Part shown: positions 2,900 through 61,960 of the stretch, piece by piece | How the letters are laid out: the number at the start of each line of letters is the position of its first letter | Numbering within the stretch: the first letter of the stretch is position 1 | Assembly (NCBI GenBank): GCA_009777355.1 | Contig: WRMA01000001.1 | Coordinates: 28,505 to 92,504 of the forward strand | Reading direction: 5' to 3' | Origin: Oscillospiraceae bacterium | GTDB taxonomy: Bacteria > Bacillota > Clostridia > Oscillospirales > WRJC01 | DNA length: 64,000 bases | Notes under the pieces: model-generated | What the model was told of the DNA's origin: nothing | Seen by the model: only the letters and a program-made list of their open reading frames with translations | Databases searched by the model: none | Position numbers and translations under genes: made by a program

Positions 2900-3574
2900 A
2901 TGAAACAAATTATTTACGCGGTCGAGGACGACGCCGCTTTACAGGAATTATACGGATATTTGCTGGAGGACGATTTTGACTGCCGCTCGTTTTATGACGG
3001 CGGAACGCTTTTCGCCGAATTGTCAAAAGCTATTCCCGACCTTATTTTACTCGATATAATGCTGCCCGGAGACGACGGATTCGCGATATTATCGAGATTG
3101 AAAGCGGACAAGAAAACTTCGCATATTCCCGTTATTATGATTTCGGCGAAAGGCGAGGAAATATCAAAAGTCAAAGGCTTGAACATGGGAGCGGACGATT
3201 ATATAGCGAAACCGTTCGGAGTTCTCGAATTTACGGCGAGAATCAAAGCGAATCTGCGTAAGAATAATAAACGGGCGGCCGAAAATATTATCTATAAAGA
3301 TATAATTATCGATTTTTCCAAACATCAGATTACGGTAAATAATAATCAGATTCAGACGACGCTCAAAGAATATAATCTGCTGCGCTTACTATGCGGAAAC
3401 GCGGGAAAAGTGCAGGTTCGGGAGGTTATATTCGATAAAGTCTGGGGAGATAATTTTATAGGGGAAACCCGGACGCTCGATATTCACATAAAAGAACTGC
3501 GTAAAAAGCTGTCGGAAGCAGAAAGTCAGGTTACGATTCAAACGATACGAGGGGTGGGATATATGCTGATATGA
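2900..3574 (+). CDS. phoP: OmpR/PhoB-family response regulator (PhoP-like)
   Basis: Receiver domain (DLILLDIMLPGDDG) plus a winged-helix C-terminus (IQTIRGVGYML). The symbol is assigned from the pst-phoU context. Confidence 0.75.
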   Translation: MKQIIYAVEDDAALQELYGYLLEDDFDCRSFYDGGTLFAELSKAIPDLILLDIMLPGDDGFAILSRLKADKKTSHIPVIMISAKGEEISKVKGLNMGADDYIAKPFGVLEFTARIKANLRKNNKRAAENIIYKDIIIDFSKHQITVNNNQIQTTLKEYNLLRLLCGNAGKVQVREVIFDKVWGDNFIGETRTLDIHIKELRKKLSEAESQVTIQTIRGVGYMLI

Positions 3575-6871: not shown

Positions 6872-9337
6872 TTACGGTATGGTTAGTTCGTCTGTCTTCG
6901 CGGACGCGGGCTTCGATGCTGTCGCCGCCGCCCATACTACATACTTATCGCCCGTCTTTACTTCAATATCTTGTTTCGAAGCCCCTGTCGTCCGTACCTC
7001 GCCGCCGTTGACCGTGTAGTTCATGCTTGCCTTGAGTTTCATAATGCCGTTCTTTGCCGATACTTTCGGCGCTTTCGCGAGCGAACGGGCCGTTACCTTT
7101 TTGGGGCGCGGACTGGGGGTATATACGTTGCCTTCATACTTTGCGGCGGCTTTGATAAACCTTACGTCTTTTGCCTTTTCTGTTGTAAGAACCGGGATTC
7201 CGCCGTCAGATACCGGCGAATATACGGGAATGTCGGTCTTGTTCTCAATACGCTGCGATACTAATATTTTTTCCGCCGCCTCCGCCGCGGCCTTGCCGTC
7301 GGCTATTACCCAGCCGCCCGGTTCGCTCGCGCCCGCCGCTATCGCATAATTTATCGTCAACTTCCGCGTTTCTTTCGGACGGCCGTCTATTTTGGGGAAT
7401 TTAACGACGGCCGCGCCTTCTGCGGGTTTGCCTTTGTTATCGCCTTTTGCGGCGTCGAGTTCTCCGCTTGTCAAATGCAGCGTCGTCTCTTTATTTAACA
7501 GTTTCGCCAGCAGTTTGTCGTCGAACGGCTTACTCCATTTTTTCCATTTGACTCCGCCGTTAACGCTGTACGCCTTTACGGCGAAGCCGGCAAGGGTTAT
7601 TCTCTCCTGAGTCAGGTTGATGAAGATTCCGTCGTTATCCGACGGAACGATTACGTCTCCGGAATCGTTGATTCTTATGGGTTCTGCATTACGCAGAAAC
7701 GGATAGCCGTCGTTTTTTCCGTCTTCGATAGCCCATATAGTATCAAAGTCGAATCCGGCGAAAACAGCCGCGGCGGTCGCGGCGTTTTTCATCTGCTCCG
7801 TCGTGAGTCCGAAGCCCCACGTGTCGTTGAAGGTCGTCCAGCCGTGTCTGCGTTTAGGAACAGATTCTCCGTTTATTATTTGGTCGCTGTCCGTGTTCCA
7901 GTAAACGTTAGTAAACGTCGCGAGCCCCCAGCTGGCGCTGTCGTTCTGGCGACCGGTAATCGCTCCGGTGTACGCTCCGGTTTGCTGCTGGTCGCCGGCC
8001 GCCGTTCCCTTGGTATCCACTTCGATATTTCCGGTATTGTAACAGTTTGTATATGCCGCGTTACAGTCGGCTTCACCGGAGATTCCGCCCGTGTATGCGG
8101 TCGCCACGTTTTCGGTTTTGATATTTCCCGTATTGTAGCAGTTCGTAAGCTTGGATGAATTGGGATTATTTTGTATTCCTCTGGCGAACCCTATTATGCC
8201 GCCTACCCGAGCCGGCAAGGCCGTCCAGCGGGCATAGAAATTCGCGTATATATCGCCGCTGTTGAAACATTCGCCAATGATAAATATGGGGTTTTGGGTA
8301 ATCGCCATACCGCCGGCGATACCCCCGATGTAGTTGTTTCCCCCGCTTCCGTTTCCCGTAAGGGTAACGCGGGCGGCGTTGAAACTTCTCGTAAAAGTAT
8401 TTACGCCTCCGCTCGAGTGTCCGGCGATTCCGCCTATGACCCCGCTGCCTCCTCCCGTGAACCCGCTTACGCTTCCGAGGTTATAGCAGTTCGTAATAGT
8501 ATAACCGTCGCCGCTGCCGACGATTCCGCCCGCGTAGACGTCCCTGGCGAGGGAGGACGACGACGAATCGGATAGAATCGTTCCGGTATTATAGCAGTTT
8601 TCGATAACGCCGGAAGACATTCCCGCAATACCCCCGGCTGTGAAATATTGTCCTCTGACGCCGTTTCGGGCGGTAATATCGGCGGCGTTGTAGCTGTTGG
8701 AAATAGTTGCGCCGACAGATACGCGTCCGGCTATTCCTCCCGCCGCGCCCCAATGAATTTCGACGCGGTTTATAATACTGCCGGTCACGTAGCAGTTATC
8801 GATAACGGAAATTCCCCTGACCATGCCGGCAATTCCGCCCTGCGACTGATATTCTCCGGCGTAAGGCGATTCGCCTATTGTTTCCACTCCGGAAGAAACA
8901 TCCATGCCGACTCCCGTAAGGCCAAGGTTTCTGATTGTCGCGTCCTCGACGGCTCCGAACAGACCGGACTGGTCGAAACGCCCCGTTATTCTGAGACCTT
9001 CGATTGTGTTTCCCCGTCCGTCGAAAACTCCGGTAAAGGGCGCGTAAAAGTCACCGATCGGCTTCCATTCGCCGTCTAAAGTAATGCCGCCGCTCAAATG
9101 ATACGTACCGTTTAACGGGTATGACGGATTTGTTCCTATCATTGCCAATTCGGCCGCGGTTCCGACGGCTATGGAATCCGCCGGCGGACTGCCGGGGGAA
9201 ACGGCCGCGATAAAGCCGTTATTATTAGCTTTAACCGGACTTGCGGCGGCAGTCAAACCGCCGAAAGTAAAAAATGAGATAATCATTGCGAGAATCAGAG
9301 CAGCGCTTGCTATCCGCTTCGGTAAATTTGCTTTCAC
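6872..9337 (-). CDS. Secreted 821-aa protein with GLUG-type (NCYNTG...GGIAG) beta-helix repeats and C-terminal Ig-like region
   Basis: GTG start and signal peptide MKANLPKRIASAALILAMIISFFTFGGLTAAA. There are about 8 degenerate repeats ending in GGIAG/GGIVG, then a GLTTEQMK...DGYPFL segment. Confidence 0.8.
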   Translation of the reverse strand: MKANLPKRIASAALILAMIISFFTFGGLTAAASPVKANNNGFIAAVSPGSPPADSIAVGTAAELAMIGTNPSYPLNGTYHLSGGITLDGEWKPIGDFYAPFTGVFDGRGNTIEGLRITGRFDQSGLFGAVEDATIRNLGLTGVGMDVSSGVETIGESPYAGEYQSQGGIAGMVRGISVIDNCYVTGSIINRVEIHWGAAGGIAGRVSVGATISNSYNAADITARNGVRGQYFTAGGIAGMSSGVIENCYNTGTILSDSSSSSLARDVYAGGIVGSGDGYTITNCYNLGSVSGFTGGGSGVIGGIAGHSSGGVNTFTRSFNAARVTLTGNGSGGNNYIGGIAGGMAITQNPIFIIGECFNSGDIYANFYARWTALPARVGGIIGFARGIQNNPNSSKLTNCYNTGNIKTENVATAYTGGISGEADCNAAYTNCYNTGNIEVDTKGTAAGDQQQTGAYTGAITGRQNDSASWGLATFTNVYWNTDSDQIINGESVPKRRHGWTTFNDTWGFGLTTEQMKNAATAAAVFAGFDFDTIWAIEDGKNDGYPFLRNAEPIRINDSGDVIVPSDNDGIFINLTQERITLAGFAVKAYSVNGGVKWKKWSKPFDDKLLAKLLNKETTLHLTSGELDAAKGDNKGKPAEGAAVVKFPKIDGRPKETRKLTINYAIAAGASEPGGWVIADGKAAAEAAEKILVSQRIENKTDIPVYSPVSDGGIPVLTTEKAKDVRFIKAAAKYEGNVYTPSPRPKKVTARSLAKAPKVSAKNGIMKLKASMNYTVNGGEVRTTGASKQDIEVKTGDKYVVWAAATASKPASAKTDELTIP

Positions 9338-10425: not shown

Positions 10426-10562
10426 CCTTTCTTAAATTTTTAAATTTAAATAAATATATAAAAACCGCGCAAATAATCCCGATTCAATCGCGCGGTTCGC
10501 ATACGTTAAGAACAGCGGAGCCGGCTTTTTTTTTCAAAAAAAGCGGCTGTCCAAAACATAAT

Positions 10563-10650
10563 CTTCCCTACGTTGGCATTACCCATATCAGGTTATAAGG
10601 GACAGCGGATTTTTACTTAAATCCGCATCTCAGCCCTGCGGCGCCCCCGA
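10563..10650 (-). promoter_or_regulatory. TPP (THI-box) riboswitch
   Basis: The minus strand reads GGGGCGCCGCAGGGCUGAGAUGCGG...CCGCUGUCCCUUAUAACCUGAUAUGGGUAAUGCCAACGUAGGGAAG. It contains the CUGAGA and ACCUGAU..GGNUAAUGCC..CGUAGGGAA cores. Confidence 0.9.
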
Positions 10651-10696
10651 CTATTTAATTGCGGTTATTATTTTTTATGAGTTTCAGCAAAGTTTC

Positions 10697-10876: not shown

Positions 10877-10916
10877 TATATTTTTAAGCGAACGCCATAA
10901 ATTTTTTTATTTTTGC

Positions 10917-10945
10917 TTGACAATAATAAACAATCGTGATATAAT
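10917..10945 (+). promoter_or_regulatory. Consensus promoter TTGACA-N17-TATAAT for candidate antisense RNA (copy L)
   Basis: -35 at 10917-10922 and -10 at 10940-10945. Confidence 0.6.
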
Positions 10946-10951
10946 TAAATA

Positions 10952-11086
10952 TGCAAATGAAAGAAAGAGCGGTGTAACGCTCTCTCAATCAGCCGCGCCG
11001 GCCGCTTAAGGCGGCAGGCTTTGCGTAGTTTAAGTTTTAATTAAACGCCGCTAGTCCTTGCTGGGAGGGCGGCGTTTACTTTTTAT
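10952..11086 (+). ncRNA. Candidate ~135-nt antisense sRNA (copy L), convergent with the small ORF
   Basis: Bounded by the promoter above and by hairpin 11043-11077 followed by ACTTTTTAT. An internal hairpin at 10966-10983 is preserved by a compensatory change relative to copy R. Confidence 0.45.
11043..11077. terminator. Shared (bidirectional) hairpin AAACGCCGC...GCGGCGTTT at the 3' end of the small ORF
   Basis: 9-bp stem with a T-run on the plus-strand side. It overlaps the last codons of the ORF. Confidence 0.55.
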
Positions 11087-11167
11087 CACATTTATTATAT
11101 ATTTTACCGGTTCAATAAAATCCGGAAGAAAATATATTACTAAAAATAATATTTCGCAAACATACAT
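11051..11167 (-). CDS. Small ORF, 38 aa MYVCEILFLVIYFLPDFIEPVKYIINVIKSKRRPPSKD (hydrophobic N-terminus, basic tail); candidate type I toxin-like peptide
   Basis: RBS GAAAGGAG lies 7 nt before the ATG. Compared with copy R it shows 2 synonymous and 1 conservative change. Confidence 0.5.
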   Translation of the reverse strand: MYVCEILFLVIYFLPDFIEPVKYIINVIKSKRRPPSKD

Positions 11168-11310
11168 GAGCTTCACTCCTTTCAGTTGGATTTTTGCGAA
11201 GAAATAATATTCTTCAACCCTCCTTTCGGAACGCAAAGCCATGCCGCCCTTAACGCTGCGACGCGACATATATATTTTCTCATACTTCGACAGTTTTGTC
11301 AAGCGCTTTT

Positions 11311-12891
11311 TTATTTTTTCTGAAACGCAATCACAAAAGGCGCTTCGGGTATGTTTATAAGACGGTGATACAGACAGTCAAAAATTTTCCTGTCGAGATT
11401 TTCCGCAAATTCAAAAATTTTTTCGCCCTCTCTCGTTCCTTCCGAGTGTCCGGGATAAACGCAGACTACTATAACTCCTCCGGCTTTTAATATTTCAAGC
11501 GCGCCTTTTAAGCATATGAGCGTCGACTCTGTCAGGGTCGTTATCGATTTGTCTCCCCCGGGAAGATAACCGAGATTGAAAACCGCTCCGTCAAGCTCTG
11601 TTTCTTCCGGCATATATTTTCTGAAATTTCCGTGAGAATCGCGTATCAAATATATATTTTCATCAAAACAATTCTCGCTTTCAAGCCTTTCTTTTGTCGC
11701 TTCGAGAGCTTTTTGCTGTATGTCAAACGCATAAATTTCAGCTTTCGGACATTTCTTTTTTATATAAAGCGTATCGTGACCGTTACCCATGGTAAAATCG
11801 GCGTAAACTCCGCCGCCCGCCTCAAGGCTTCGGTTAATCGCGACGTCGAGCAGACGCTTCGCAAAGCTTAAAATATTCGTCAGTGATTTTTGTTCCGCCC
11901 CCCTTGCAGAAAGAGGCTGATGCGTTTCTCCTGATTTTTCTAATTTTTTCCCCTGATACGTTCCGCGTTTTGCCAACTCTTTGTCTATATCGTTTATAAC
12001 GGAAAATTTTTTGCTTACCCATTCCGGGAGGGTTTTATCGGATTTATCCGATATTTCGGGGTCTCCCGTAAGGCGCATTATAACTATTTCCGGCGGCAGT
12101 TCTTCAAGCTGCGATACGACAATATCTATATATTCTTCTTTTGACGGTAAATTTATTTTTCCCGAATTATATAAATCGTAAATTTCAGTTCCCGGCTCTA
12201 TATAAAGCGCATGGATTTTTACGCCGAGCGGCAAAGGGTCGAGACTTGCGATATATTTCGCGGTTTCAAGCATCATTTCATAATTTTCACCCGGCAGACC
12301 GTTTATAATATGAATAATTACCGGTATTTTATACTCCGCCAAAATTTTATACGCCTCTTCGAAAACTTCGAGCTTATATCCCCGGTTTATAATACCGGCC
12401 GTTTTATCGTGAAAAGTCTGCAATCCGAGTTCAACCGCCGTATCGAGCCCGGTTCTCACGCCTAATTCGCTTAAATATCCCGCGGTTTCGCCGGTTATAC
12501 AGTCCGGACGGGTCGCCGTATATATCCCGGCAAGATTATCTGTATCCAGAACGCTTTCGTAAACTCTTTTCAGTTCGTCAAGCGAAGCGAAAGTATTTGA
12601 CCCCGCCTGAAAATACGCGATATATTTAGTGTCTCTCCATTTTTTTGAGAGCGCTTCTTTTTTTATATCAAACTGTTTTACTATTTCCCCGGGAGACAGC
12701 AAACCCCCGTTTATATCCCCCGTCCGCGTTTGTATACCCCGGCAGAAAATACAGCCCCTTCCGGTCCGTTTTATATGAGGACAGGAAAAACCGGCGTCAA
12801 GCGCGATTTTCGCCGTCTTAACGCCGTATCTGTTTGCTAAATAATAATCGTAAGCGTGATAACGCTTGTTGTTCGGATATATAAAATTAAT
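11311..12891 (-). CDS. Fusion of a TIGR01212/YtqA-type radical SAM protein with a YtqB-type (PF06962-like) SAM methyltransferase; probable ATT start
   Basis: The C-terminal half has GNGHDT...FNLGYLPGGDKSITT. The Cys-cluster region (FSCPHIKRTGRGCIFC) lies in-frame upstream of the first canonical start at 12702. GGAGGA sits 7 nt before ATT at 12891. Confidence 0.8.
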   Translation of the reverse strand: MNFIYPNNKRYHAYDYYLANRYGVKTAKIALDAGFSCPHIKRTGRGCIFCRGIQTRTGDINGGLLSPGEIVKQFDIKKEALSKKWRDTKYIAYFQAGSNTFASLDELKRVYESVLDTDNLAGIYTATRPDCITGETAGYLSELGVRTGLDTAVELGLQTFHDKTAGIINRGYKLEVFEEAYKILAEYKIPVIIHIINGLPGENYEMMLETAKYIASLDPLPLGVKIHALYIEPGTEIYDLYNSGKINLPSKEEYIDIVVSQLEELPPEIVIMRLTGDPEISDKSDKTLPEWVSKKFSVINDIDKELAKRGTYQGKKLEKSGETHQPLSARGAEQKSLTNILSFAKRLLDVAINRSLEAGGGVYADFTMGNGHDTLYIKKKCPKAEIYAFDIQQKALEATKERLESENCFDENIYLIRDSHGNFRKYMPEETELDGAVFNLGYLPGGDKSITTLTESTLICLKGALEILKAGGVIVVCVYPGHSEGTREGEKIFEFAENLDRKIFDCLYHRLINIPEAPFVIAFQKK

Positions 12892-13680
12892 TTACGCGTC
12901 CTCCGGGTTTCTCTTTGTTATCTCATCGTAGAAAGCGGCCGAAATGATTCCCAGGAAAAGCGGCAGCAGAAGAGCCGCGGCAATAGCAAATATAATCAAA
13001 ACGACCATAAAAATAATACCGGCAACCGGTATCAGCGACAGCAGAAAGAGGATAAGCGCCGTAAGTCCGACTGCGAGACAGATAATAAAATCAACGAGGA
13101 ACATTTTGCCTTTATGGCCGTTCGTCTGAACCATGGATTTTTTCAAAGCCTCCGTCGCGGGTATATCGGGTTCGCCCAGCATTATGTAGGGAACAAATCT
13201 GTAAGAATAAGACTTGATAACGGCGAAAACGAATCCGGCGAACGGAATAAGCCCCCAGATAAACACCCACAGACTCATCCATGCCATCCCTCCCGCGTTA
13301 CGGAAAAATTTACTGCTGAATCCTTCGAAAAGCTGCGCCGAGCTTACTTGTTTGCCGCGGTATCCTTTGAGATAAATCGACGTCATGCCGAGCGAAAGAA
13401 CGAGCGTCACCGCGATTCCCAACCCCGGTATTCCCAGAAACATAAAGCTTGCAAGCATCGCCAAAATAGAGTAGAGAAGCGAAAGCCCCCAAAGCAGCAG
13501 GGGTTTTTTCAGAAGAAACCTCGCCGATTTTGAGACGACGTCTCCGACCATACCCGTTTTTTCAAGACTCTGAGTAATATTCCGGGTCTGTTTCGCTTCG
13601 CCTCCGCCGAGACTGCTCCCGCAGTCGCTGCAGAACAGGCTGCCGTCGTTGTTCTGAACTCCGCATTTTGAACAAAACAT
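12892..13680 (-). CDS. Membrane protein with N-terminal zinc ribbon (CSKCG...CSDCG) and DUF975-like multi-TM domain
   Basis: 262 aa with an AGGAGG RBS. CxxC-x14-CxxC is followed by 5-6 TM segments. Confidence 0.8.
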   Translation of the reverse strand: MFCSKCGVQNNDGSLFCSDCGSSLGGGEAKQTRNITQSLEKTGMVGDVVSKSARFLLKKPLLLWGLSLLYSILAMLASFMFLGIPGLGIAVTLVLSLGMTSIYLKGYRGKQVSSAQLFEGFSSKFFRNAGGMAWMSLWVFIWGLIPFAGFVFAVIKSYSYRFVPYIMLGEPDIPATEALKKSMVQTNGHKGKMFLVDFIICLAVGLTALILFLLSLIPVAGIIFMVVLIIFAIAAALLLPLFLGIISAAFYDEITKRNPEDA

Positions 13681-13745
13681 GATAAATCCTCCTTAAAAAT
13701 AATAATATTTACGTTATTTTATTAATATATTTTAAAATTACTTAA

Positions 13746-13775
13746 ATTATAACATAATATTATTAAATTTGTCAA
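13746..13775 (-). promoter_or_regulatory. Promoter TTGACA-N18-TATAAT for the zinc-ribbon/radical-SAM gene pair
   Basis: Hexamers read on the minus strand, ~65 nt upstream of the start at 13680. Confidence 0.55.
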
Positions 13776-13928
13776 GCAGTTATAAAAAAACTCTTGACAA
13801 AAATGTCGAAATGCGCGAAAATATATATGTCGCGTCGCAGCGTTAAGGGCGGCATGGCTTTGCGTTCCGAAAGGAGGGTTGAAGAAAACTATTTCTTCGC
13901 AAAAATCCAACTGAAAGGAGTGAAGCTC

Positions 13929-14036
13929 ATGTATGTTTGCGAAATATTATTTTTAGTAATATATTTCCTGCCGGATTTTATTGAACCGGTAAAATATATA
14001 ATAAATCTGATAAAAAGTAAACGCCGCCCCCAATAG
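13929..14036 (+). CDS. Small ORF, 35 aa MYVCEILFLVIYFLPDFIEPVKYIINLIKSKRRPQ; candidate type I toxin-like peptide
   Basis: RBS GAAAGGAG lies 7 nt upstream. A TTGACA box at 13794-13799 precedes a ~100-nt leader. Confidence 0.5.
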   Translation: MYVCEILFLVIYFLPDFIEPVKYIINLIKSKRRPQ

Positions 14037-14164
14037 CAAAGGTTTGCGGCGTTTATAAATTATAATCTACGCAAAGCCTGCCGCCTTAAGCGGCCGGCGC
14101 GGCTGATTGAGAGAGTGTTAGCAGCACTCTTTCTTTCATTTCTGTCTGTCGGACAGACAGGCAC
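14010..14164 (-). ncRNA. Candidate ~155-nt antisense sRNA (copy R)
   Basis: Runs from the consensus promoter at 14171-14199 to the shared hairpin. It has a 5' hairpin CCTGTCTGTCCGACAGACAG and the hairpin AGAGTG/CACTCT. Confidence 0.45.
14019..14054. terminator. Shared hairpin AAACGCCGC...GCGGCGTTT overlapping the ORF stop
   Basis: 9-bp stem. The T-run (ACTTTTTAT) is on the minus-strand side, so it fits termination of the antisense RNA. A second hairpin at 14112-14130 followed by TTCTTTCATTTCT fits the plus-strand mRNA. Confidence 0.55.
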
Positions 14165-14170
14165 ACACTA

Positions 14171-14199
14171 ATTATATCACGATTGTTTACTAATGTCAA
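14171..14199 (-). promoter_or_regulatory. Consensus promoter TTGACA-N17-TATAAT for the antisense RNA (copy R)
   Basis: -35 at 14194-14199 and -10 at 14171-14176 on the minus strand. Confidence 0.6.
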
Positions 14200-14231
14200 G
14201 CGAATATAAAAAAATAGATATCTGCAAAATA

Positions 14232-16220
14232 TTACCTCGATATTTTATACGCCGCCGCCGTTCTTTTCTCCAATATAAAATCAGATTTTTCTTCAGAATC
14301 CCTCTCTTTTTTCCAACCGCCGAATCTTTCCCACGACGTGTCCAGTATTTTTTTATAATTTCCGAATAAATTTTTTGATTTTAAGACCTCTCCGAAATCA
14401 TAGCTTCCGGATACGCGGAAATTAAACAGAAACAACAGATTATCTTTTTTGAACGCAATAATTTTCTCTTCCTCGCCTATATATAAACTCTCCGAATTAT
14501 ATTTTAATATATTATTTTTCCCCGCAAGCTTTATTAACGCTTCATCGAAATTCTGTAAATATTTATATTTTAAATCCTGATTATCAGCAAGACTCCAGAG
14601 TCTTCTCGCATAATGATAACTGTCGTTATTTTCCGGTCTGGGAAAGTCTATCCATTCGGGGTGTCCGAACTCGTTGCCCATAAAATTTAAATAGCCTTCA
14701 CCCGCGCACATACACGTTATCAGTCTTATTAATTTATGCAGGGAAACCGCCCGTTCTACAACTAAACTATCAGAATCCTCATGCATATTCCAGTACATTT
14801 CTTTGTCCGCGAGCCAGAACATAATAGTCTTATCCCCGACGAGAGCCTGGTCGTGCGATTCGCAGTAGCCTATGACTTTTTCTTTCGGACGTCTCTGCGT
14901 CAGTTCCCAGAATATATGCCCCATATGCCAGTCCTCGTCCTGTTTAGTCCTGAGATTTTTAACCCAGAAATCGGGCGTTCCCATACCCAGCCTGTAATCG
15001 AACCCCAAACCTCCCCATTTTACCGGCAGGCACATTCCCGGCATACCGCTCATATCTTCGGCAATTAATATGCAGTCCGGCTTAATTTCTTTGCACAAAT
15101 CAGACGCGAGCTGCAAGTAAGCGACGGACTCCAAATCTGTATTCGGCGAAAAATACTTATTATAATTATCAAAAGATTCCCCCAGACCGTGGTCATGATA
15201 CAGCATAGAAGTTACCCCGTCGAATCTGAACCCGTCGAATTTATATTCCTCAAGCCAGAATTTTAAATTGGACAAAAGAAAATGCAGAACCTCGCCTTTG
15301 CCGTAATCAAACAATCTCGTTCCCCACGTGGGGTGCGAGCCTCTTTCTCCCGCATGAAAATACTGATACTCCGTTCCGTCGAATTTCGCTAACCCTTCGT
15401 CGGCGTTCGGCGCGGCGTGCGAGTGAACCAAATCGAGCAGGACGGCGATTCCCATTTCGTGAGCCGTATCTATCAGCCGTTTTAATTCTTCGGGCGTTCC
15501 GAATCTCGACGAAACTGCGAAAAAATTAGATACCTGATAACCGAACGACCCGTAATACGGATGCTCTGCGATTGCCATAAGCTGAATCGTGTTATACCCC
15601 AGTTTCTTCACCCTCGGCAGAACAATATTTATATAGTCTGCAAATCCCGATACTTTTTCTTCTTCTCCGCACATTCCGACATGACTCTCATAAATCAGCG
15701 GCGTTTTGATTTTTTTTATGTCAAAATTTTCAACCCGCCATTTATATTTACTGTCCCAGACCTGACCGTAAAACTCGAAAGTCTCGGGATTCTGCTCAAC
15801 TCTTCTGCAATACGCCGGGATTCTGTCGAAGATTTCCCCGTTTGCCTTTATTCTTATTTTAATTTTTGATTCGTGAGGCAGGGAATTGATTCCCGGTATA
15901 AAAATCTCCCAAACCCCCGGGATTTGCGATTCGGACGGCTTTAATTTATGCGATTTGTCATTCCAGCCGTTAAACTCGCCGATAAGAGAAATCTCTTCGG
16001 CGTTCGGAGCCCATTCCCTATAATACCAGCCGTTATTTTTCTTTGATTTATGAAACCCGAAATATAAATGCCCGTTCGCGAAATCCGACAAACTTTTTGT
16101 ATTATTCAAAAGCTTTTTTTTAAGCTTCGCGTAATTTTTCATGCGCAGCTCTATATCGCCGCCGTAATCGTTCAGATATTTATCAATCTCAAGTATTTTA
16201 TATTTATATTTTTTACCCAT
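14232..16220 (-). CDS. glgB: 1,4-alpha-glucan branching enzyme (GH13)
   Basis: 662 aa with GH13 catalytic regions DLVHSHAA, GFRFDGVTSM and IAEDMSG, plus an N-terminal CBM48-like region. Confidence 0.9.
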   Translation of the reverse strand: MGKKYKYKILEIDKYLNDYGGDIELRMKNYAKLKKKLLNNTKSLSDFANGHLYFGFHKSKKNNGWYYREWAPNAEEISLIGEFNGWNDKSHKLKPSESQIPGVWEIFIPGINSLPHESKIKIRIKANGEIFDRIPAYCRRVEQNPETFEFYGQVWDSKYKWRVENFDIKKIKTPLIYESHVGMCGEEEKVSGFADYINIVLPRVKKLGYNTIQLMAIAEHPYYGSFGYQVSNFFAVSSRFGTPEELKRLIDTAHEMGIAVLLDLVHSHAAPNADEGLAKFDGTEYQYFHAGERGSHPTWGTRLFDYGKGEVLHFLLSNLKFWLEEYKFDGFRFDGVTSMLYHDHGLGESFDNYNKYFSPNTDLESVAYLQLASDLCKEIKPDCILIAEDMSGMPGMCLPVKWGGLGFDYRLGMGTPDFWVKNLRTKQDEDWHMGHIFWELTQRRPKEKVIGYCESHDQALVGDKTIMFWLADKEMYWNMHEDSDSLVVERAVSLHKLIRLITCMCAGEGYLNFMGNEFGHPEWIDFPRPENNDSYHYARRLWSLADNQDLKYKYLQNFDEALIKLAGKNNILKYNSESLYIGEEEKIIAFKKDNLLFLFNFRVSGSYDFGEVLKSKNLFGNYKKILDTSWERFGGWKKERDSEEKSDFILEKRTAAAYKISR

Positions 16221-17662: not shown

Positions 17663-17706
17663 GAAAAATACTTCTCCGTTTTTTTGAAATTTAAAATAAA
17701 AAAATC

Positions 17707-17735
17707 TTGACATTAATAAATTAATATGATATAAT
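17707..17735 (+). promoter_or_regulatory. Consensus promoter TTGACA-N17-TATAAT for the candidate antisense RNA of the third module
   Basis: -35 at 17707-17712 and -10 at 17730-17735. Confidence 0.6.
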
Positions 17736-17741
17736 GGCAGC

Positions 17742-17865
17742 AAGGGAAACTGCGCGCTGATAACGCGCAAATCTCCCCTGAACCGCAAAGCGGCTTGGTA
17801 TTAGATTATTATTAAAATAAATTAACCGTAATCCAATTACCGGACTGGGGCGGTTAATTTACGTC
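17742..17865 (+). ncRNA. Candidate ~120-nt antisense sRNA (module 3)
   Basis: 5' hairpin GGGAAACTGCGCG..CGCGCAAATCTCCC, small hairpin CCGCAAAGCGG, an AU-rich tract, and terminator hairpin 17822-17857. Confidence 0.45.
17822..17857. terminator. Shared hairpin TTAACCG...CGGTTAA overlapping the stop codon of the 27-aa ORF
   Basis: 7-bp stem. On the minus-strand side it is followed by TTTATTTTAATAATAAT. Confidence 0.55.
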
Positions 17866-17937
17866 TATAGAAAATAATATCATAAGTATTAATACAATAA
17901 TAATTATTATTATCCATTTCAGTATCTTATTTTTCAT
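17854..17937 (-). CDS. Small ORF, 27 aa MKNKILKWIIIIIIVLILMILFSIDVN (single TM); candidate type I toxin-like peptide
   Basis: My own translation. SD GGGGG lies 8 nt before the ATG and is paired in the hairpin CCUCC-GAAA-GGGGG. Confidence 0.5.
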   Translation of the reverse strand: MKNKILKWIIIIIIVLILMILFSIDVN

Positions 17938-17992
17938 TGATTCACCCCCTTTCGGAGGAAAACCAAGCCGCCTCACAGTTTCTGCCGACTTT

Positions 17993-18021
17993 ATTATACA
18001 CTATGTTAAATAATTTGTCAA
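17993..18021 (-). promoter_or_regulatory. Consensus promoter TTGACA-N17-TATAAT for the 27-aa ORF mRNA
   Basis: -35 at 18016-18021 and -10 at 17993-17998 on the minus strand. Confidence 0.6.
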
Positions 18022-18056
18022 TATATGTTTTAGAGTATTTTTAAAACATATATTTT

Positions 18057-18941: not shown

Positions 18942-18998
18942 TTTTTTAAGCACCAGAATTACAGCTTTAAATAATTTAAAATTATTTTTAAATTTTCG

Positions 18999-19027
18999 TT
19001 GACAAACAATAAAATATGTGTTAAAAT
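18999..19027 (+). promoter_or_regulatory. Promoter TTGACA-N17-TAAAAT with a ~275-nt leader before the 68-aa ORF
   Basis: Hexamers read directly. It is divergent from the methyltransferase gene. Confidence 0.5.
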
Positions 19028-19308
19028 ACCTCAAAGAGAAATAATAAATGCGGGAAGCCCGTAAAGTGAAGCAAACACTTTGCGAAATGCGTCCGGTACA
19101 GTCCACCATACACATTGATTTTCTCGAATCCCGCGATTATATTATACATCAATTAAAGCATATAGTCAAGTGTATTTTTAGTCGCGTAATAAAAAATTTA
19201 GGGATAATTTTTTATTGATGTTTTTTCGCCGTGCGTGGGTTTATTTTCCATACCCGGCATTTATTATTTCTCGGAGTGTGTGAAGTAATAAAAAAAGGGG
19301 GGAATTAA

Positions 19309-23026: not shown

Positions 23027-23068
23027 GATTTATATATCTCCTTGATTTTTTTATATTTTAAGTTTCTA

Positions 23069-23097
23069 TTGACAAACATGAATATACGTGTTATAAT
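23069..23097 (+). promoter_or_regulatory. Consensus promoter TTGACA-N17-TATAAT antisense to the ruvA 5' region
   Basis: -35 at 23069-23074 and -10 at 23092-23097. Confidence 0.6.
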
Positions 23098-23103
23098 TAT
23101 AAT

Positions 23104-29087: not shown

Positions 29088-29525
29088 ATGTATAGTGAAA
29101 AAGTCATGGAGCATTTTGCAAATCCCCGCAACGTAGGAGAAATAGAAAACGCCGACGGAATCGGCGAAGTAGGCAACGCCAAGTGCGGCGACATTATGAA
29201 GATTTTTCTGAAAATAGAAGATAATATTATAAAAGATATAAAATTCAAGACGTTCGGCTGCGGCGCGGCAATCGCGTCGTCGTCCGTTATGACGGAAATG
29301 ATTCTGGGAAAAAGCATTGAAGAAGCCCTCGCCCTCACGAACAAAGACGTCGCCGCCGCTCTTGACGGACTGCCCGCCGCGAAGATGCACTGCTCGGTTC
29401 TCGCCGAAGAAGCAATCAAAAACGCCGTCGGCGATTACTACAGAAAAAATAATATCCCCGTGGATTTTAAATCCGGATGCGACGGGCGCTGCGGAGGCTG
29501 CGGCGTAAACGACGGCGCGGAATAG
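29088..29525 (+). CDS. iscU: Fe-S cluster assembly scaffold IscU/NifU-like
   Basis: MYSEKVMEHFANPRNVG, with GNAKCGD, FGCGAAIASS and MHCSVLA cysteines. Confidence 0.85.
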   Translation: MYSEKVMEHFANPRNVGEIENADGIGEVGNAKCGDIMKIFLKIEDNIIKDIKFKTFGCGAAIASSSVMTEMILGKSIEEALALTNKDVAAALDGLPAAKMHCSVLAEEAIKNAVGDYYRKNNIPVDFKSGCDGRCGGCGVNDGAE

Positions 29526-61444: not shown

Positions 61445-61476
61445 TAATATTTTTTTAAAATAATTTCAAATTGCTA

Positions 61477-61505
61477 TTGACAATAAAAAATTATTGTGTT
61501 ATAAT
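61477..61505 (+). promoter_or_regulatory. Consensus promoter TTGACA-N17-TATAAT for the T-box leader
   Basis: Hexamers read directly. Confidence 0.6.
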
Positions 61506-61511
61506 TACTTT

Positions 61512-61960
61512 TGTGAAAATTTAATAACGCCGTTAAATCGTTGATTAAGAGTAGTAAAAACGTAGGAAGACGTTCACAGAGAGCCGTCGCGAGGTGAAAG
61601 CCGGCAGCGTCGCGCGTTTTGAATGGGCTTATGAGAGCGGAGCGAACAGAATAATTAATAATTATTAATTATTTTAAGTAGTAGCCGACGGGAGCCGACC
61701 GTTATATCGGTAAGCATATAATAACCGGATTGTTTTTGATGTATAAATCCGGCGCGAGTATGCGTTAAGCAGGGTTTGGGCATGATTTTGCGTTTTAGTC
61801 TATAATTCGCGGACCGCGCCGCAGACCAATGTGGGTGGTACCGCAGAGATTTTTATTTTTTATATTTTAAAAATAATTAACCTTTGTCCCATTTGTTTAT
61901 TGTTTATAATAGACATGGGCTGAGGTATTTTTTATTTAATAATTTTTATTTAATTTCAAG
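61512..61960 (+). promoter_or_regulatory. T-box leader, probable Trp specifier (UGG at 61624-61626)
   Basis: Stem I elements (AGAGAG, GGUGAAAG), a specifier-loop GAAUGGG, and the T-box AAUGUGGGUGGUACCGCAG at 61828-61846. Confidence 0.8.

Follow-up and report, generated by a model that had tools for sequence, protein, structure and literature searches.

Architecture of copy R

The 64,000-nucleotide (nt) stretch of contig WRMA01000001.1 analysed here, called the window, comes from a metagenome-assembled genome of an Oscillospiraceae bacterium and contains three small loci (R, L and T) in which a short open reading frame (ORF) is preceded by a leader box and followed by a box complementary to it. 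Copy R served as the reference, and the three loci are interpreted below as probable type I toxin-antitoxin modules related to bsrG/SR4 of Bacillus, in which a toxin mRNA is opposed by a convergent antisense RNA. All positions are those of the window unless another contig is named.

The predicted promoter of the R toxin mRNA (TTGACA, 17 nt, GAAAAT; 13794-13822, +) gave 10 of 12 matches in a promoter scan and would place the transcription start near 13829. Reading of the sequence identified a Shine-Dalgarno (SD) motif, GGAG, at 13917-13920 (+) and a start ATG at 13929-13931 (+), which together delimit a ribosome-binding stretch at 13917-13931. The ATG opens a putative toxin ORF of 35 amino acids (MYVCEILFLVIYFLPDFIEPVKYIINLIKSKRRPQ; 13929-14036, +) and was taken as the start because a 1-nt deletion in the leader of a related locus (L001, described below) breaks the upstream frame. 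A proximal hairpin spans the stop codon on both strands (14019-14055), supported by compensatory changes in an RNAalifold comparison and by comparison with bsrG; its tail in the antisense sense is TTTACTTTTT, and a 13-nt AU-rich spacer separates it from the 3′ strand of the helix described in the next paragraph. By analogy with bsrG, this hairpin would correspond to SL3 on the mRNA, and its complement would probably terminate the antisense RNA. Further downstream, a distal hairpin followed by a T-run (14109-14142, +) was the sole terminator-like site in a scan of 13650-14300, and it carries a compensatory C-G to T-A change between copies L and R. The preliminary description of this DNA had considered an mRNA that ends at the distal hairpin, which is most likely, since this hairpin is the only mRNA-sense terminator-like site in each of R, L and T. 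On the opposite strand, a promoter with an extended -10 element (TTGACA, 17 nt, TG-n-TATAAT; 14171-14199, -) matched the consensus at 12 of 12 positions, as did the opposite-strand promoters of L and T. Promoter, fold and co-fold predictions together point to an antisense (antitoxin) RNA at 14012-14164 (-). From these consensus matches, the toxin mRNA would measure about 310 nt (roughly 13829-14142), and the convergent antisense RNA, some 150 nt long, would overlap the mRNA 3′ end by about 125 to 130 nt, the 3′ box included.

The preliminary description had singled out a 5′ box (13840-13865) and a 3′ box (14069-14092) as complementary over about 23 bp with 2 to 3 bulges. Both proved to be the inner part of a longer helix of 32 bp, formed by a 5′ strand at 13829-13865 (+) and a 3′ strand at 14069-14103 (+), which was present in the minimum-energy and in the centroid fold of the copy R mRNA; in the minimum-energy fold, the inner part has 23 bp with two interruptions (mRNA A17 and U27). 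The helix begins at the predicted +1, as in bsrG, and ends 5 nt before the terminator hairpin. Folding of 13829-14142 gave -123.5 kcal/mol, and folding of 13830-14142 gave a z score of -8.3 against shuffles. Pairing of the first 40 nt of the R mRNA with its last 110 nt gave a duplex of -57.0 kcal/mol, whereas 1000 dinucleotide shuffles reached -20.4 ± 5.0 kcal/mol (best -37.3), none of them as low as the observed value. The best of the other 40-nt segments sampled in the window reached -50.9 kcal/mol, in GC-rich coding DNA, and none attained -57.0. Strong 40-nt duplexes near 29150 and at 7050-7350 were considered as similar loci and rejected as GC-rich coding sequence. An antisense RNA that covers the 3′ strand of the helix necessarily carries a same-sense copy of the 5′ strand; the presence of this copy had been described correctly, and it follows automatically from the overlap.

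Copies L and T and related loci in other genomes

The 26-mer GCGTTAAGGGCGGCATGGCTTTGCGT at 13840-13865 (+) recurs at 11231-11256 (-), where 0 matches are expected by chance in the window, and the 16-mer GGCGGCAGGCTTTGCG at 14070-14085 (-) recurs at 11010-11025 (+). These repeats belong to copy L (10900-11314, -), a whole locus in inverted orientation that is 95% identical to R and has the same parts: an mRNA promoter at 11302-11274 (-), a helix 5′ strand at 11267-11231 (-), an ORF of 38 amino acids at 11167-11051 (-), a helix 3′ strand at 11026-10992 (-), an mRNA terminator at 10986-10963 (-) and an antisense promoter at 10917-10945 (+). In the terminator scan of copy L, the proximal hairpin was called in the antisense direction, again with the tail TTTACTTTTT, and the distal hairpin in the mRNA direction. 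The third locus, T (17700-18030, -), is diverged. It has an mRNA promoter at 18021-17993 (-), a helix 5′ strand at 17980-17962 (-), an SD hairpin CCUCC-GAAA-GGGGG with the AUG at 17949-17935 (-), an ORF of 27 amino acids at 17937-17854 (-), a helix 3′ strand at 17799-17781 (-), a distal hairpin at 17770-17750 (-) and an antisense promoter at 17707-17735 (+). Minimum-energy and centroid folds contained the same helix in copy L (11231-11267 with 10992-11026, -) and, with a different sequence, in locus T (17962-17980 with 17781-17799, -). The recurrence of the arrangement in both loci had been pointed out before, and the T boxes given then, 17961-17974 and 17790-17799, are correct. The N-terminal part of the encoded peptide is hydrophobic in R, L and T, and a basic tail is present in R and L.

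Related loci were found in three further contigs. L001 is a metagenome contig, also listed as viral, whose toxin match is 77% identical, and its toxin-antitoxin locus lies directly upstream of genes for a phage tail sheath, a tail tube and an XkdN-like chaperone (1291-3821 in L008, which is the same contig). This PBSX-like tail module echoes the prophage sites of bsrG (SPbeta) and txpA (skin element). L022 and L029 come from metagenome-assembled Defluviitaleaceae genomes and share the leader box GGCGGCWTGGYTT and the layout of the window loci; they were found with a leader pattern that left the 3′ box unconstrained. All three relatives have the convergent promoter, which is perfect in L029 and L001 and weaker in L022, and the proximal hairpin of L022 and L029 has its U-rich tail on the antisense side. 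The 5′-3′ helix is part of the minimum-energy structure of all six mRNAs (R, L, T, L001, L022 and L029).

Scanning of genome contigs with the leader pattern gave 33 matches, among which L022 and L029 were the only family members, and a scan of the same kind in viral contigs gave only L001 and two chance matches in GC-rich coding DNA. A 79-amino-acid pseudo-protein (leader plus ORF) had no relative in the genome contigs; in the metagenome and viral collections it retrieved only the L001 contig (also present as L003 and L008) and a partial locus, L002. Exact-sequence look-ups of both R/L toxins and of one flanking protein gave no match, nor did a BLAST search of the locus against phages and plasmids, and a search with the 41-amino-acid L029 toxin returned only itself. 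L012 and L016 were rejected as members, the shared 12-mer being part of an unrelated hairpin. In these two contigs from gut Clostridia (about 4150-4222 in L012 and about 1020-1094 in L016), GGCGGCTTGGTT, a 12-mer that matches the T-locus box exactly, pairs locally with AACCAAGCCGC, and the resulting hairpin precedes a small ORF (MSKKIKISVRLTETEHAHLKEQ...). On visual inspection, the product of this ORF may resemble ribbon-helix-helix or MobC-type proteins, and the use of the sequence appears unrelated.

Some parts vary between the loci. R, L, L001 and L029 have a leader insertion of about 47 nt (R 13870-13921; L 11226-11175, -) relative to T, L022 and bsrG; it duplicates an SD-like motif, GAAAGGAG(G), and shifts the working SD downstream. 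The upstream copy of this motif in R, AGGAGGG (13873-13879), is without a usable start codon and may be a decoy or a stand-by site. Copy R also has a perfect 8-bp hairpin (CTGTCTGT-CGG-ACAGACAG; 14142-14160) at the predicted 5′ end of the antisense RNA, absent from copy L, and a perfect 10-bp hairpin is inserted at the predicted 5′ end of the L001 toxin mRNA (683-707 of that contig). Both hairpins look like acquired 5′ stabilisers.

Covariation of the helix

We then compared the helix across five distinct loci. Plain MAFFT alignment placed the two strands out of structural register; a joint alignment of the 5′ strands with the reverse-complemented 3′ strands, with the register kept, was used instead. 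In this alignment of 25 pairs, 89.9% of the cells held a standard pair and 11 pairs had changed on both sides. None of 500 shuffles reached any of the five measures, and slid registers left only 35 to 47% of the cells paired. G·U pairs outnumbered A·C mismatches 13 to 3, and the helix therefore seems tuned for the mRNA strand and not for a DNA repeat. With a sequence-only alignment as input, RNAalifold still found the proximal hairpin, the terminator and a portion of the helix, and showed compensatory changes. The combination of a U-to-C change in the 5′ box and an A-to-G change in the 3′ box of L001 was rejected as a compensatory pair, since in register it corresponds to a U·G pair plus a C·A mismatch. 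Folding and covariation thus support a helix that exists at the RNA level on the mRNA strand, as predicted by the models.

A different origin of the boxes was considered, namely a DNA-level inverted repeat such as the termini of a small mobile element or a recombination site. None of the three loci is present at the syntenic positions in related genomes (see below), which suggests that the loci were gained or lost as units, and two of the copies are inverted around two genes, as could be expected of such elements. A DNA repeat would not be expected to show the G·U over A·C asymmetry, nor pairs that change on both sides between loci with pairing kept. Moreover, the repeats lie inside the transcription unit, between promoter and terminator, and the homologous bsrG helix was demonstrated by RNA probing. 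We regard this origin as very improbable.

Relationship to bsrG/SR4

The arrangement is that of a published system, which the preliminary description had not recognised. Probing of the 296-nt bsrG mRNA showed that nt 1-35 and nt 232-262 form a long helix with bulges, P1, from which SL1 to SL3 branch, and that the terminator SL4 follows after one unpaired nucleotide (PMC3834814). The antitoxin SR4 overlaps the 3′ part of bsrG; in the complex, nt 1-33 are single-stranded, the SD helix is extended from 4 to 8 bp and translation is inhibited (PMC3834814). SR4 also promotes decay of the bsrG mRNA by RNase III (PMC3834814; PMC6562991). As a control, we folded the SPbeta bsrG mRNA (L042, 341-636) by the same procedure. 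P1 was reproduced as 1-36 paired with 232-262, and the extension of the SD helix was reproduced when the 3′ overlap complementary to SR4 was blocked. By analogy, then, the two boxes of the window loci are best described as the two sides of a counterpart of P1, a long helix closing the entire mRNA right before its terminator.

In bsrG/SR4, as predicted for the window loci, a toxin mRNA of about 300 nt pairs its first ~35 nt with a segment of the 3′ untranslated region (UTR) right before the terminator, the 5′ strand is closely followed by a GAAAGG(G)G hairpin motif with the SD beside it, a hairpin spans the stop codon and has the antisense terminator as its complement, and the convergent antisense RNA covers the 3′ strand of P1 within an overlap of about 120 nt at the mRNA 3′ end. 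The SD-region motif is visibly related in bsrG (CAUCCCCUAUGAAAGGGGUG), L022 (CUCCCGAAUGAAAGGGGGUG) and T (CCUCCGAAAGGGGGUG). Antisense binding is predicted to free the 5′ strand and to sequester the SD further at the window loci too, and prophage location is shared through the relative L001. Beyond a host that belongs to the Clostridia and not to Bacillus, the R-type loci differ from bsrG in the leader insertion, with its duplicated SD-like motif and displaced SD, and in a predicted alternative helix of 14 base pairs that includes the AUG, with an energy change of 4 to 7 kcal/mol versus 0.8 kcal/mol in bsrG.

BsrG (RF01412) was the only Rfam family that recurred across the loci. On the mRNA strand, the SPbeta bsrG control scored 210 bits over the full length and L022 scored 75.7 bits, also full-length (model 1-259) and above the gathering score of 55 bits. 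The scores of the other loci were 24.8 bits for R (E = 6e-4 in a 561-nt search), 21.7 bits for L, 19.5 bits for T and 17.8 bits for L029, all full-length, and 22.9 bits for L001, where the match was partial (model 31-147). The window loci, at 19.5 to 24.8 bits, are thus distant relatives of BsrG and not members by the curated cut-off. The L022 toxin (MSIYESLSLMFMFGLFILALLTYISKKNNRPP...) matched Pfam PF16935 Hol_Tox, the family that includes BsrG and TxpA, with 53.2 bits (gathering score 23.3), so that L022 passes both curated models. The window toxins had no Pfam or NCBIfam match, and in a search against PF16935 the R, L, T and L001 peptides gave no match at E values up to 10. An hhalign comparison of R-type toxins with L022/BsrG gave a probability of 86.5%, which for peptides this short is suggestive only. 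We infer that the R, L and T peptides are toxic.

A predicted switch at the ribosome-binding site

We next examined the accessibility of the ribosome-binding site in the predicted mRNAs. The opening cost was defined as the predicted free energy, in kcal/mol, needed to open the stretch from SD to AUG, and it was computed for the free full-length mRNA and for the mRNA with its 3′ overlap blocked. Blocking raised the cost in all six loci and in bsrG: from 5.4 to 9.1 in R, from 4.4 to 9.3 in L, from 5.8 to 11.4 in L001, from 4.5 to 11.1 in L029, from 8.7 to 10.7 in T, from 17.1 to 19.3 in L022 and from 11.9 to 12.6 in bsrG. When the mRNA was ended at the proximal hairpin (computed for R, L, L001 and T), the costs were almost equal to those of the blocked state. 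In folds of nascent or truncated R transcripts, ranging from 100 nt to those that stop where the 3′ box begins, 13853-13868 paired with 13917-13931 in a helix of 14 base pairs over the SD and the AUG. The segment 13853-13868 (+), which consists of the 3′ half of the 5′ box plus UCC, is thus a predicted anti-SD/anti-AUG segment. In folds of the lengthening R transcript, the 5′ box moved to the 3′ box once the latter was present. Co-folding of the R mRNA with its antisense RNA gave a complete duplex over the overlap, 141.5 kcal/mol better than the separate RNAs, and the 5′ box was again paired with the SD and the AUG. Folding with and without the antisense RNA, which the preliminary description had proposed, bore out the 5′-3′ helix in the free mRNA and not the expected effect of its loss, as blocking of the 3′ box is predicted to close the SD and AUG rather than to open them.

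These predictions suggest a sequence of three states. In the nascent mRNA, before the 3′ box is made, 13853-13868 would sit on 13917-13931 and block early translation. In the finished, free mRNA, the stronger 5′-3′ helix would take the 5′ box and leave the ribosome-binding site comparatively open, so that toxin could be made if the antitoxin RNA were absent. When present, the antisense RNA would form a long duplex with the 3′ region, and the freed 5′ box would sequester the ribosome-binding site again; the duplex would also be a substrate for RNase III, and the mRNA would be silenced and degraded. Displacement of the 5′ strand by the antisense RNA, as anticipated earlier, should occur, and it was shown experimentally for the homologous bsrG/SR4 pair (PMC3834814). 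Both the switch at the ribosome-binding site and RNase III decay are proposed to operate at the window loci. According to the folding models, the fold-back would then be the translatable, or at least the more open, state, for which bsrG offers the only experimental precedent. In its most specific form, this mechanism makes the 5′ box a switch with two partners (nascent OFF, finished and free ON, antisense-bound OFF), through which the antitoxin represses from about 150 nt away by mimicking the 5′ box. The R-type loci would show a much stronger version of the bsrG/SR4 effect, 14 base pairs with the start codon against the 4-to-8-bp change, and the leader duplication would have evolved to build it. 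We put this specific form forward tentatively, as somewhat short of an even chance.

The preliminary description had likened the fold-back to that of hok/Sok of plasmid R1 and aapA1/IsoA1 of Helicobacter pylori, that is, to a translationally inert storage form from which translation would require 3′ processing or displacement. The full-length mRNAs of these systems are indeed closed by a long-distance 5′-3′ interaction, as in the window, and metastable 5′ structures have been proposed to prevent co-transcriptional translation of hok and AapA1 (PMC5416894). In AapA1, the 5′-3′ interaction sequesters the SD, trimming of the 3′ end activates translation, and the processed mRNA is bound by the antisense RNA at its 5′ UTR (PMC5416894). 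An inert fold-back at our loci would be in line with the long 5′-3′ helix, which is real, with the SD of T and L022, which is in a hairpin even in the fold-back form, and with the full-length bsrG mRNA, which has an equivalent helix and is barely translated in vitro. That poor translation was traced to the local SD hairpin, however, and not to P1 (PMC3834814). In the window loci, unlike in AapA1, the SD and AUG lie outside the helix; for all six loci, the folds predict a more closed ribosome-binding site once the 3′ box is removed or blocked, the opening cost being lower in the fold-back; and the antisense RNA targets the 3′ end and not a 5′ region exposed by processing. An inert storage form is thus unlikely on the present models.

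A second possibility keeps the BsrG-like identity and limits the role of the helix to compaction and stabilisation of the mRNA against RNase J1, RNase Y and 3′ exonucleases, with an antisense RNA that does nothing but create an RNase III substrate. Such a stability-only role is compatible with the identification and quite possible. In txpA/RatA and bsrE/SR5, as predicted for the window loci, the convergent antisense RNA overlaps the toxin mRNA by 100 to 140 nt at its 3′ end and the duplex is attacked by RNase III; the bsrE mRNA is reported to fold like the bsrG mRNA (PMC6562991). RatA and SR5 nevertheless cause decay only (PMC6562991), and the extra 5′ hairpins of the L001 mRNA and of the copy R antisense RNA are typical stabilisers. 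The alternative helix between 5′ box and SD is also statistically modest. The window loci differ from these two systems in that folding predicts a change at the ribosome-binding site upon antisense binding: complementarity between the 3′ part of the 5′ strand and the SD/AUG region is seen in every locus, and occupation of the 3′ box adds 2 to 6.6 kcal/mol to the predicted opening cost. Moreover, the R-type alternative helix, with 14 base pairs including the start codon, exceeds the change from 4 to 8 bp that is functional in bsrG. We consider a stability-only role a serious possibility that falls below even odds.

Several points weigh against the interpretation of the window loci as bsrG/SR4-type modules with a switch. 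The alternative 5′ box-SD helix was only moderately better than with shuffled 5′ strands, with p values from 0.0075 to 0.24 (0.044, 0.0075, 0.064, 0.020 and 0.24 per locus, the value for copy R being about 0.04, and 0.043 for bsrG), and it is without in-register covariation. A candidate covariation between R and T in this helix was dropped, as the two helices are offset by 3 nt when measured from the AUG. The local SD hairpin of T and L022 persists in both states, which leaves a predicted switch of about 2 kcal/mol, and the proximal hairpin of T has a U-rich mRNA-sense tail, so that some T transcripts could stop before the 3′ box. In bsrE/SR5 and txpA/RatA, no antisense-induced change at the ribosome-binding site is seen (PMC6562991). 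The window loci fall under the curated Rfam and Pfam cut-offs, family membership being transitive through L022, and the RNA ends of R, L and T come from consensus matching only. Finally, the covariation alignment comprises only five distinct loci and its method leans towards pairing, and in L022 and L029, 13 of the 5′-box positions had been set by the search pattern. With these points taken into account, we estimate at about 75% the probability that the window holds three type I toxin-antitoxin modules of the bsrG/SR4 kind that work by the mechanism proposed here.

The par locus of Enterococcus faecalis pAD1 (fst/RNA II) is another type I toxin-antitoxin system of Firmicutes in which, as predicted for the window loci, convergent RNAs have a bidirectional terminator region in common. 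Direct repeats in par render the two RNAs complementary in their 5′ regions, so that the antisense RNA directly covers the translation start, whereas the antisense RNA of the window loci is without complementarity to the 5′ leader. The contrast with par/Fst had been drawn correctly in the preliminary description; it does not make the arrangement new.

Genomic setting

Copies L (10900-11314) and R (13782-14215) flank, in inverted orientation, a radical-SAM/methyltransferase fusion gene and a gene for a zinc-ribbon membrane protein. The predicted antisense RNAs of L and R are 92 to 95% similar, enough for cross-reaction. The radical-SAM ORF, listed at 11311-12702, extends upstream in frame over 12702-12880 (-) through the Cys motif CPHIKRTGRGCIFC. 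As no ATG, GTG or TTG start was found in this extension, the gene may use a non-canonical start or have lost its start codon, or the assembly may be wrong at this point.

Related genomes for a synteny check were fetched via the neighbouring glgB gene, the product of which is 100% identical to a protein of a metagenome-assembled Oscillospiraceae genome. Contigs L004 and L005 have the same gene order, and no toxin-antitoxin locus was found at their syntenic positions, all three window loci being missing. The intergenic region of L005 that corresponds to the position of T (3210-3500 of that contig) contains repeated GGGGCGACC...GGTCGCCCC and GGGCGGATATAGAATCCGCCC hairpins, which resemble REP-like elements, in place of the locus.

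Two other RNA elements were observed in the window. A TPP riboswitch (RF00059, 66.7 bits) lies at 10547-10658 (-), about 250 nt from the antisense-promoter end of copy L. A match to the T-box leader family (RF00230; 78.6 bits, E 2.5e-15, below the gathering score of 93) was found at 61532-61894 (+), directly downstream of a promoter-like repeat at 61463-61507 that belongs to a four-copy family (other copies at 10903-10947, 18985-19029 and 23055-23099).

Implications

The architecture and the mechanism discussed here are already published for bsrG/SR4, and no new mechanism is revealed. What is new is that an Oscillospiraceae genome contains three such loci, unannotated and strongly diverged, and that Defluviitaleaceae genomes contain relatives of them. 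According to a 2019 review, homology searches of Clostridia had turned up hardly any known type I toxins (PMC6563280). The bsrG/SR4 design thus appears to occur, strongly diverged, in gut Clostridia of the families Oscillospiraceae and Defluviitaleaceae as well. The RNA scaffold was easier to recognise than the R, L and T toxin peptides, which curated models missed, and it could therefore be used to find unannotated toxins. Moreover, the R-type loci would provide a convenient natural test of whether an antisense RNA bound at the 3′ end can switch off translation at a distance.

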